DNA of 64,000 nucleotides, taken from assembly GCA_964535825.1 (NCBI GenBank), contig CAZHUC010000004.1:97065-161064 (forward strand). Direction: 5' to 3'. Below are positions 48,799 to 50,075 of this stretch, one piece after another. Within the stretch, counting starts at the first letter, position 1. Every line of letters starts with the position of its first letter. The notes beneath the pieces are model-generated. The model saw only the letters and a program-made list of their open reading frames with translations. It made no database searches and was not told the DNA's origin. The DNA is from an uncultured Rickettsiales bacterium (GTDB lineage: Bacteria; Pseudomonadota; Alphaproteobacteria; Rickettsiales; SXRF01). A program made the translations under genes and the position numbers.

Positions 48799-49521
48799 AT
48801 GAAAAAGATTTTGGCTCTTACTACCCTAATAACCTTGGTTTCAGCCGCTTCACACGCCCAAATGCCGCCTCCACCGCCGCATCCTATGCGGATGATATCG
48901 GTCACTGGCGAGGCGCATGAGAGCATTGTGCCGGATCAGGCCGTGCTGAATATCTCACTGGTAAGCCGCAATATCAGCCTTCAGGAAGCCAAGCAGCAAA
49001 ATGACAAGCTGGCAGACAAGATCGTGGCTATCACCAAAGAGCTCGAAATTCCTAAAAATGATGTGGCGACGTCTAATCTCTATGTATCGCCGGAATATAA
49101 CTATGAAAATGGCCGCCAGCAGCTGAAGGGATATGCGGTGAACCGTTCCCTGCGCATTACCATGAAGAAGCTGGGTATCCATGAGGTATTATTATCCAAG
49201 GTGGTGGAAGCAGGCGTCGATCAGGTCGGTGGTGTAGAATTCGGGCTGGCAGACCCTGAAAGCCATATGCTCAAGGTGCGTGCGAAGGCGTTCGAGAATG
49301 CCAAAGCCAAGGCAGAACTGCTTGCAAAGACAGCAGGCATGACGCTGGGTAAGCCGATCTCCATTTCCCTTGGTGGTGCACAGCCACCGGTAATGCCGAT
49401 GCCTATGATGGCCAAGGCTTCACGCGGTATGGACATGGCCGAGGAAATGTCGGTTGCGCCTAGCCTGCCGGGCATGAGCACGATCAGCGAAACCGTATCC
49501 GTAACCTTTGAGCTTGAATGA
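48799..49521 (+). CDS. SIMPL (DUF541, YggE/BP26-like) periplasmic protein
   Basis: Signal peptide; ISVTGE..PD and TxNLYVSPEY motifs; terminal VxVTFEL. Confidence 0.88.
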   Translation: MKKILALTTLITLVSAASHAQMPPPPPHPMRMISVTGEAHESIVPDQAVLNISLVSRNISLQEAKQQNDKLADKIVAITKELEIPKNDVATSNLYVSPEYNYENGRQQLKGYAVNRSLRITMKKLGIHEVLLSKVVEAGVDQVGGVEFGLADPESHMLKVRAKAFENAKAKAELLAKTAGMTLGKPISISLGGAQPPVMPMPMMAKASRGMDMAEEMSVAPSLPGMSTISETVSVTFELE

Positions 49522-50075
49522 TGACCCTTGCTATTGAACCATGGCAGCCCGGTAACGAAGAGCATCGTAAGGCATTCGCAGACATTAACAGCGAGTGGCT
49601 AAACGAATTCTTCCGTATTGAAGAAACCGACGCGGCCATGTTCCAAGACCCGCAGGGTTATATCATCGATAAGGGGGGCATTATTTTATTTGCTCGCGAA
49701 GGTGATGAGTTGCTTGGCACTGTGTGTCTGTTCCCGATCGGTGATGGTGTATTCGAGCTGGGCAAGATGGGCGTGCGGAAGAACACGCGCGGCAAAGGTA
49801 TCGGCCGGATACTGGCGGCAGAAGCCATTATCTGGGCGCGTCGTAAAGGCATTCCAAAACTCTATATCGCCAGCAACCGTAAGCTGGAGCAGGCGATTGG
49901 TCTATACAAATCCCTGGGGTTCATTGAGCTCACAGAAAATAATGATCCGCGCTACGCACGCTGCGATATTACGCTGGAGCTTGACCTGTCGCCCAAAGAG
50001 ATCGGTGGTCGTAAAGGCCCAGACCCTGTGCGTTACGGCGACTGGGAAAACGCCGGCAAGTGCGTGGATTTTTGA
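49518..50075 (+). CDS. GNAT N-acetyltransferase fused to C-terminal DUF1674/SDHAF4 peptide
   Basis: GNAT motif A RGKGIGRILA and LYKSLGF; tail KEIGGRKGPDPVRYGDWENAGKCVDF matches the SDHAF4 signature [23 protein letters not shown]. Confidence 0.88.
   Translation: MMTLAIEPWQPGNEEHRKAFADINSEWLNEFFRIEETDAAMFQDPQGYIIDKGGIILFAREGDELLGTVCLFPIGDGVFELGKMGVRKNTRGKGIGRILAAEAIIWARRKGIPKLYIASNRKLEQAIGLYKSLGFIELTENNDPRYARCDITLELDLSPKEIGGRKGPDPVRYGDWENAGKCVDF

Follow-up and report, generated by a model that had tools for sequence, protein, structure and literature searches.

The 64,000-nt stretch of DNA analyzed here (the window, taken as a whole), from contig CAZHUC010000004.1 of an uncultured Rickettsiales bacterium (assembly GCA_964535825.1), carries a gene whose 185-aa product joins a complete GNAT acetyltransferase domain in frame to the C-terminal peptide of DUF1674/SDHAF4 (Sdh8 in yeast), an assembly factor of succinate dehydrogenase (complex II). 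Our analysis uncovered two known families in a new, conserved, very rare architecture of single origin. The gene is the SDHAF4-type gene of this bacterial family, with the variable, disordered N-terminal arm replaced by a GNAT domain. Its size and the folded GNAT domain set it apart from the small, stand-alone, disordered proteins typical of SDHAF4/DUF1674, of which it is a variant architecture rather than a typical member.

An earlier note, made from the letters of the window alone, had described a complete GNAT domain running in frame into DUF1674/SDHAF4, with neither a stop nor an internal ATG at the junction. Both claims held. The ORF list of the window contains a single ORF at 49518-50075 (+) spanning both domains, and Pfam placed Acetyltransf_1 (PF00583) at residues 26-135 (65 bits, E 8e-18, cut-off 20.7) and DUF1674 (PF07896) at residues 158-185 (48.5 bits, E 1e-12, cut-off 23.5); in a six-frame search of the genome the gene scored 50.4 bits with PF07896. 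The junction between the GNAT domain and the peptide has no stop and no linker, and the tail, which the note had put at about 49995-50075, extends from S158 to F185 at bases 49989-50072, a close match. The last in-frame ATG of the ORF is M84, and the sole in-frame GTG or TTG beyond it is V171, 15 codons before the end; with no usable start near the tail, a separately made DUF1674 product is not plausible. The ORF ends in GKCVDF followed by the stop codon, which places the peptide at the extreme C-terminus with a free Asp-Phe carboxylate. The protein is named at NCBI only as 'GNAT family N-acetyltransferase'.

To assess conservation of the fusion, we searched 5.8 billion protein clusters. This search revealed the two-domain architecture in 23 clusters of 175-190 aa, drawn from NCBI, JGI, ENA and Logan assemblies and sharing 50-91% identity, and the same reading frame was evident in five species genomes, that is, the window's own and four others. 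When six genomic copies were compared codon by codon, dN/dS within the genus came to 0.04-0.06 in the GNAT part and 0-0.04 in the tail, and synonymous sites were almost saturated; both halves are thus under strong purifying selection. Indeed, G92, G94, G96, R97 and Tyr130 are invariant among 24 aligned fused sequences, and across sets of 24-29 sequences the whole motif R91-G-K-G-I-G-R97, like Y130, shows little or no variation. In the tail, P170, R172, Y173, G174, D175, W176, E177, G180, C182, V183, D184 and F185 do not vary among 24 fused sequences, and the last two are constant in every fused and stand-alone sequence aligned.

These data bear directly on whether the gene might be an artefact or a pseudogene, with two separate genes appearing as one through a fault of assembly or sequencing or through recent loss of a stop codon. 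Another database protein with DUF1674, P0206, does resemble such a read-through, in that case into sdhC. For the window's gene, however, the identical frame in five independent species genomes and 23 clusters, the latter from four data sources, dN/dS far below 1 in both halves, and a tail devoid of an in-frame start for a separate product all speak against it. The shared frame in independent assemblies together with the low dN/dS rules out a local assembly or sequencing artefact, and this explanation is effectively refuted. As for P0206 itself (164 aa), its DUF1674 motif spans residues 16-56, is not C-terminal, and continues in frame into an SdhC (Sdh_cyt) domain; DUF1674 lies immediately upstream of sdhC in the source organism, and the protein is probably the outcome of a lost stop or a gene-call artefact.

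The AlphaFold2 (AF2) model of the protein (mean pLDDT 85) shows a confident GNAT fold over residues 1-156, with pLDDT mostly above 90, strands at 5-8, 55-61, 64-75, 78-86, 114-119 and 151-156, and a helix order typical of GNATs. Foldseek returned GNATs as top matches (TM 0.76-0.83), among them 3D8P with E 1e-12 and TM 0.83. In a phmmer alignment, Tyr130 pairs with the Tyr of the 'LYQKLGF' motif of HP0935, which we take to be the general acid Y127 of that enzyme. HP0935 is a protein acetyltransferase of Helicobacter pylori in which Y127, the general acid, is indispensable (PMC12273574). Judged from sequence and model, the GNAT half is probably enzymatically active. No NCBIfam equivalog reached its cut-off for this domain (the best, 28.6 bits against 219), which leaves it without an assignable substrate. 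The subfamily to which it belongs comprises 633 representatives at E <=1e-30, often arranged as MarR-GNAT, GNAT-GNAT or MarR-GNAT-GNAT proteins, as befits a frequently reused module. We also considered GNATs of toxin-antitoxin systems (TacT/KacT) and rejected them, given weak matches (E 0.002-0.007) and neighbors encoding SIMPL and thioredoxin-like proteins, with no antitoxin.

The tail, in turn, matched the Rhodobacter sphaeroides protein RhR2 (2k5k, E 3e-8) and human SDHAF4 (8dyd_C, E 6e-7) in phmmer searches. Its pLDDT is low (49-58), in keeping with a peptide that would become ordered only on binding; residues 75-108 of human SDHAF4 become ordered on SDHA (Sharma et al. 2024, PMC10784507). 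According to the same study, SDHAF4 D107/F108 bind H407/R451 at the SDHA active site and are needed to displace SDHAF2, E84 and E92 bind SDHA R171, an E84N mutant is non-binding, and the N-terminal region of the human protein is unconserved and modulates binding. Taking the SDHAF4-SDHA contacts from the supplementary tables of that paper (PMC10784507; structures 8DYD/8DYE), we found 11 of the 15 SDHA-contacting residues kept in the window's tail, namely the equivalents of E84, G86, E92 (as D), R95, Y96, D98, G103, R104 (as K), C105, D107 and F108, which correspond to E161, G163, D169, R172, Y173, D175, G180, K181, C182 and D184-F185. The equivalents of R101 and K102 are absent, their places being occupied by N178 and A179.

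The client side of the interaction is conserved as well. The genome of the window (G000; 1.92 Mb, 12 contigs) encodes sdhCDAB (C1:111287-115970) and sdhE (contig C7). Contacts were mapped onto its SdhA with constant offsets, for which the covalent-FAD His and the His and Arg of the active site served as anchors, and 15 of the 16 positions proved identical to human SDHA (Q53, S110, R111, R120, A141, D142, L255, T257, E258, E263, R328, E334, T335, H356 and R401); at the sixteenth, a backbone contact, A454 is replaced by S404. Since contact residues are kept on both partners, docking of the tail on SdhA is well supported by sequence, and the tail probably binds SdhA. That the GNAT domain would thereby be tethered to unassembled SdhA is a reasonable structural inference.

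A further lead comes from the N-terminal end of the peptide. We scanned genome contigs with a profile of the fused alignment and sampled ~96 stand-alone DUF1674 loci among the matches listed; an E-x-G-G anchor was present in 96/96 of these stand-alone proteins vs 14/23 fused clusters. The anchor corresponds to the region of human SDHAF4 around E84, the residue altered in the non-binding E84N mutant. All nine losses map to the sub-clade containing G004 (P0011, P0012, P0014-P0018, P0020 and P0022; locus L135, 8072-8617, -), in which the last 16 residues are still invariant and the spacing between the GNAT domain and DPTRYGDWE is only 6-12 residues. The last GNAT strand (151-156) reaches into the part of the alignment where the ordered section of human SDHAF4 (75-108) begins. 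These features suggest that the GNAT domain itself may touch SdhA and could replace part of the peptide's binding. The anchor losses are phylogenetically clustered and hence count as a lead, not as a statistic.

The chromosomal context identifies the fusion as the counterpart of an ordinary SDHAF4-type gene. In fused genomes the gene order is rsmB(-), SIMPL, fusion, thioredoxin-like and hppA (Table 1), and the most divergent fused members, P0021 and P0019, occupy the same slot. In the sister genera represented by G008, G035, G012, G016 and G019 the equivalent slot holds a stand-alone DUF1674 gene of 47-62 aa. The shared slot makes the fusion the positional orthologue of the family's SDHAF4-type gene. 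Consistently, it is the single PF07896 match in the window's genome, the genomes G001-G004 have one match each, and no close paralogue of the GNAT half was detected in G000. The rpe-rsmB(-)/DUF1674(+) arrangement reaches distant alphaproteobacterial metagenome-assembled genomes (MAGs), which indicates that the stand-alone state is ancestral.

Within the locus, the SIMPL stop codon overlaps the start of the fusion gene (ATGA, 4 nt), and the thioredoxin-like gene begins 2 nt past its stop. The SIMPL neighbor is common to fused and unfused relatives. The thioredoxin-like protein of the window has no Pfam or NCBIfam match, while its orthologues have Thioredoxin_8/AhpC-TSA. No terminator was found on the + strand between the SIMPL, fusion and thioredoxin-like genes, and the trio formed by SIMPL, the DUF1674 gene (fused or not) and the thioredoxin-like gene (48799-50641 in the window) is compact, apparently co-transcribed and conserved family-wide.

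Table 1. Features of the fusion gene and its chromosomal slot in the window.
Feature	Position	Strand	Evidence
rsmB, divergent, left boundary of the conserved slot	47445..48746	-	Pfam NusB + Methyltr_RsmB-F, synteny
SIMPL/DUF541 periplasmic protein gene, upstream	48799..49521	+	Pfam PF04402, E 7e-53
Fusion gene, 185 aa + TGA stop, ATG start	49518..50075	+	ORF list, Pfam, orthologues
GNAT acetyltransferase domain, residues 1-157	49518..49988	+	Pfam PF00583, AF2 model, Foldseek
Acetyl-CoA pyrophosphate-binding motif R91-G-K-G-I-G-R97 (R/Q-x-x-G-x-G/A)	49788..49808	+	Alignment
Tyr130, candidate general acid	49905..49907	+	Invariant in alignments; pairing with HP0935 Tyr
DUF1674/SDHAF4-type C-terminal peptide, residues 158-185 (SPKEIGGRKGPDPVRYGDWENAGKCVDF)	49989..50072	+	Pfam PF07896
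Terminal Asp184-Phe185, free carboxylate, predicted plug of the SdhA dicarboxylate site	50067..50072	+	Invariance, human SDHAF4 comparison
Membrane-anchored thioredoxin-like gene (WCGYC motif), downstream	50078..50641	+	Sequence, orthologues
hppA (H+-pyrophosphatase), right boundary of the conserved slot	50797..52872	+	Pfam H_PPase, E 3e-269, synteny

We then delimited the distribution of the fusion. Among 44 species genomes of the family it occurs in five species, belonging to 2 of the 19 genera, and it is confined to the same five species among 401 genomes of the order. A PF07896 match was scored in 48 of 61 relatives, and most other genomes of the family and order carry a short stand-alone DUF1674. 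The possibility, raised in the earlier note, that relatives always encode two separate genes is therefore half borne out: 39 of the 44 family species encode DUF1674 on its own, but the fusion persists in a coherent clade. Among 1.84 billion representatives at 50% identity, the full architecture is present in a single one, P0005, and the next 149 matches end with the GNAT domain, none with a DUF1674-like tail. The matches listed in the contig scan with the fused alignment, used purely as a sample of stand-alone genes, comprised stand-alone DUF1674 loci and no fused relatives. Long open frames at L010, L036, L056, L069 and L100 were discarded as upstream read-through in high-GC DNA, not fusions.

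In a tree of the GNAT half that included unfused homologues, 28 fused sequences plus one truncated partial copy formed one clade with support 99/95. The fused GNATs are thus monophyletic, and the fusion arose once. The nearest unfused GNATs belong to other families of the same order, and a GNAT gene beside a separate DUF1674 gene, as an intermediate state, was found at 0 of 25 unfused GNAT loci. For the flanking genes (rsmB, rpe, hppA), a tree in which the fused loci are monophyletic is rejected (AU p ~1e-76). The RsmB encoded on the P0021 contig is 88% identical to that of G010, whose DUF1674 is stand-alone, and 57% identical to that of the window's genome. The fusion allele is therefore patchy within the family, through either lateral replacement at a conserved locus or repeated loss. 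A related observation was made at L152, a fused locus (JGI contig Ga0163144_10002648) whose RsmB and HppA are 88% identical to those of G010 (locus L142); the G010 slot has a stand-alone DUF1674 and is without SIMPL, which indicates that close relatives differ in the fused or unfused state at this locus.

How the two halves might work together is considered next. In the mechanism that we propose, a catalytically intact GNAT domain replaced the SDHAF4-type N-terminal arm once, with essentially no linker to the conserved peptide. As in SDHAF4, the C-terminal 28 residues would thread onto flavinylated, not yet assembled SdhA, where the terminal Asp-Phe carboxylate would fill the dicarboxylate site until SdhB takes over, and the docked tail would keep the GNAT domain right at the surface of SdhA. 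Most likely, an amino group of SdhA or of an SdhA-SdhE intermediate would then be acetylated at the expense of acetyl-CoA. A bifunctional assembly factor of this kind, with a tail that plugs unassembled SdhA and a tethered GNAT that acetylates SdhA or the SdhA-SdhE intermediate, is a tentative proposal to which we give somewhat less than an even chance, and the assignment of SdhA or an assembly intermediate as the GNAT acceptor is put forward with the same reserve or slightly more. The closest characterized structural relative, HP0935, acetylates proteins, which counts in favor of this proposal, and loss of the E-x-G-G anchor in a fused sub-clade fits a GNAT that contacts SdhA itself. The earlier note had suggested that the fusion could target an acetyltransferase to unassembled SdhA and couple complex II assembly to acetyl-CoA status. 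Of this interpretation, a real and conserved architecture with a tail competent to dock, as judged by its contact residues, stands, while SdhA as the acceptor and acetyl-CoA coupling of assembly are unsupported.

Several observations weigh against acetylation of SdhA. The acceptor-side residues F20, W27, E35, D38 and P45 are common to unfused relatives, and the GNAT subfamily is a promiscuous fusion module. Similarity to HP0935 amounts to only ~24% identity, and GNATs whose substrate is a small molecule or unknown resemble the fusion GNAT just as closely. In the literature searched we found no experimental test of bacterial DUF1674 function. Co-variation of SdhA with the fusion state was also sought: at positions 177 (Q/N vs D/E) and 439, the residues of 5 fused genomes do not overlap with those of 20 unfused ones, but at least two disjoint SdhA sites also occur in 12 of 78 control genus pairs, so this signal is not significant and was set aside. 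Co-occurrence with sirtuins proved uninformative, as these are found in fused and unfused genomes alike and are absent from the fused genome G004.

The serious rival, and the main one, is a passenger fusion, in which a GNAT gene with its own unrelated substrate landed upstream of a DUF1674 gene and lost its stop; the tail would then do assembly and the GNAT its own job, the fusion persisting because it is cost-free or merely provides co-regulation. We regard this as quite possible, although below an even chance. Support for it came from other proteins with the same tail. A word search with the window's own tail returned only two near-identical proteins, and a consensus tail was used instead. 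The DUF1674 motif was C-terminal in 118 of 120 sampled proteins, and was found on RsbW-like HATPase_c_2 domains (at least 8 clusters), STAS, shikimate dehydrogenase (AroE), MoeA_N and an AsmA/DUF748 fragment (P0221, P0225, P0227, P0288, P0294 and P0311 are examples). At L184 (6001-6507) the order is STAS, RsbW-DUF1674, folD(-), and at L185 (6001-6384) RND pumps, STAS-DUF1674, folD(-), with the junction 'KPMPKEIGGPKG' in common. Both look like fusions with the upstream neighbor beside folD, and the shared junction suggests that a partner-switching pair may have captured the tail. A tail borne by unrelated domains implies that arbitrary N-terminal cargo is tolerated and that fusions can persist without functional coupling, which lowers the evidential weight of the GNAT fusion as such and adds to the case against SdhA acetylation. 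A passenger is also favored by the N-terminal part of SDHAF4, unconserved in stand-alone sequences too, by acceptor-side residues shared with unfused homologues, by the recurrent use of this GNAT subfamily in MarR-GNAT and GNAT-GNAT proteins, and by the lack of an NCBIfam equivalog that would give the GNAT a substrate. Yet the adjacent-but-separate GNAT and DUF1674 genes expected as an intermediate were seen at none of the 25 unfused GNAT loci, no reversion to separate genes is evident in 28 fused sequences that diverge to ~50% identity, and a zero-length linker, shorter still in the anchor-less sub-clade, is hard to square with independent halves.

A non-catalytic role for the GNAT domain, either as a wedge or cap that helps displace SdhE or shields the SdhB face, or as an acetyl-CoA/CoA switch of tail availability, is improbable in our view. 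It would find precedent in human SDHAF4, which displaces SDHAF2 and whose N-terminal region modulates binding (PMC10784507). It would also suit a GNAT that abuts the SdhA-bound peptide with no linker and the loss of the anchor in 9 of 23 fused clusters, which suggests that the domain supplies binding energy; ligand sensing is conceivable too, as relatives of this GNAT are joined to MarR DNA-binding domains. Invariance of Tyr130 and of the full acetyl-CoA motif under strong purifying selection points instead to retained catalysis, and AF2 revealed no confident contact between the tail (pLDDT ~50-58) and the GNAT domain.

Returning to acetylation at SdhA, a bolder version of it can be formulated, which we consider unlikely: the tail would serve as a transferable address label, recognizing the open active site of SdhA that is flavinylated but unassembled; here it would deliver an acetyltransferase, so that SdhA or the SdhA-SdhE intermediate would be acetylated by an enzyme in the pre-assembly state alone, and complex II assembly would thereby be gated by acetyl-CoA supply. 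If so, the RsbW-like, STAS and other fusions to DUF1674 would be further uses of the label, for instance reporting free SdhA to a partner-switching sigma-factor circuit. Independently of this reading, the occurrence of the tail on RsbW-like kinases, STAS domains and metabolic enzymes points to one of two things: DUF1674 serves as a docking module in general, or evolution places no constraint on its N-terminus. Current DUF1674 annotation misses such fusions, and their recognition is useful for interpreting DUF1674 records.

Two features of the succinate dehydrogenase genes of G000, both outside the window, were also recorded. The sdh operon (C1:111287-115970) is interrupted, with two genes between sdhA and sdhB, in the order sdhC, sdhD, sdhA, a receiver-domain-like gene (147 aa), a gene for an HExxH lipoprotein (275 aa), and sdhB. 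In addition, a second sdhA-type gene (C1:201969-203780; L151, 1498-3309, -), 55% identical to SdhA, is shared by most family members; it is adjacent to nadC, and no sdhB is close by. Its product scores 809 bits with the sdhA model TIGR01816 (cut-off 727) and retains most SDHAF4 contact residues as well as the covalent-FAD His, and a canonical nadB was not found in G000. This protein might serve the tail as another client, or it might substitute for L-aspartate oxidase.

Acetylation of SDHA is well documented in mitochondria. To our knowledge, SDHAF4 is the least understood of the complex II assembly factors, and we know of no dedicated SDHA acetyltransferase. The fusion is a hint of the Rosetta-stone type, suggesting that a physical connection between acetylation and SdhA maturation is possible in one lineage of Alphaproteobacteria. 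The link that it makes between acetylation and assembly of complex II, albeit an inferred one in a narrow clade, is clean, testable and easy to approach experimentally, with a 185-aa protein, a single client and two mutants (Y130F and an Asp-Phe deletion).

One of the closest known systems is human SDHAF4/yeast Sdh8 (PF07896; 8DYD, 8DYE), with which the C-terminal peptide of the fusion, PKEIGGRKGPDPVRYGDWENAGKCVDF, aligns residue for residue. The equivalents of E84, E92, R95, Y96 and D98 and the SDHA-plugging terminal Asp-Phe are in place, and the contacts of the client SdhA are kept. SDHAF4, however, is small, fully disordered and stand-alone, whereas the fusion has a folded 157-residue enzyme domain as its N-terminus and N and A where SDHAF4 has R101 and K102. 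The stand-alone bacterial DUF1674 proteins (RhR2 of Rhodobacter sphaeroides, solved by NMR as PDB 2K5K, and the 47-62-aa genes of sister genera) are single copy per genome, like the fusion, and those of the order share with it the tail end GKCVDF and the chromosomal slot. They differ in a Lys/Glu/Pro-rich low-complexity N-terminus and an anchor kept in all 96 proteins sampled among the matches listed, against a GNAT domain and an anchor lost in 9 of 23 clusters.

On the GNAT side, HP0935 (8IYM/8IYO; PMC12273574) is a single-domain enzyme of similar size and one of the best phmmer and Foldseek matches (phmmer E 4e-6, TM ~0.76), with an aligned Tyr, taken as the general acid, but it is ~24% identical, stands alone and acetylates DprA and amino acids, and nothing ties it to SdhA. 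The closest relatives of the GNAT half are MarR-GNAT, GNAT-GNAT and MarR-GNAT-GNAT proteins (E 1e-37 to 1e-52, 35-45% identity), in which the partner, a DNA-binding domain or a second GNAT, is N-terminal; the 149 next-best representatives are without a DUF1674 tail. The earlier note knew of no description of the GNAT-DUF1674 architecture, and indeed it is not mentioned in the literature we searched, databases naming the protein only as a GNAT; nor did we find a study of the RsbW-like, STAS or AroE fusions to DUF1674. The latter resemble the fusion in design, with a folded domain placed almost directly on the same extreme C-terminal peptide, and are distinguished from it by other N-terminal domains, other lineages and folD instead of rsmB as the neighbor.

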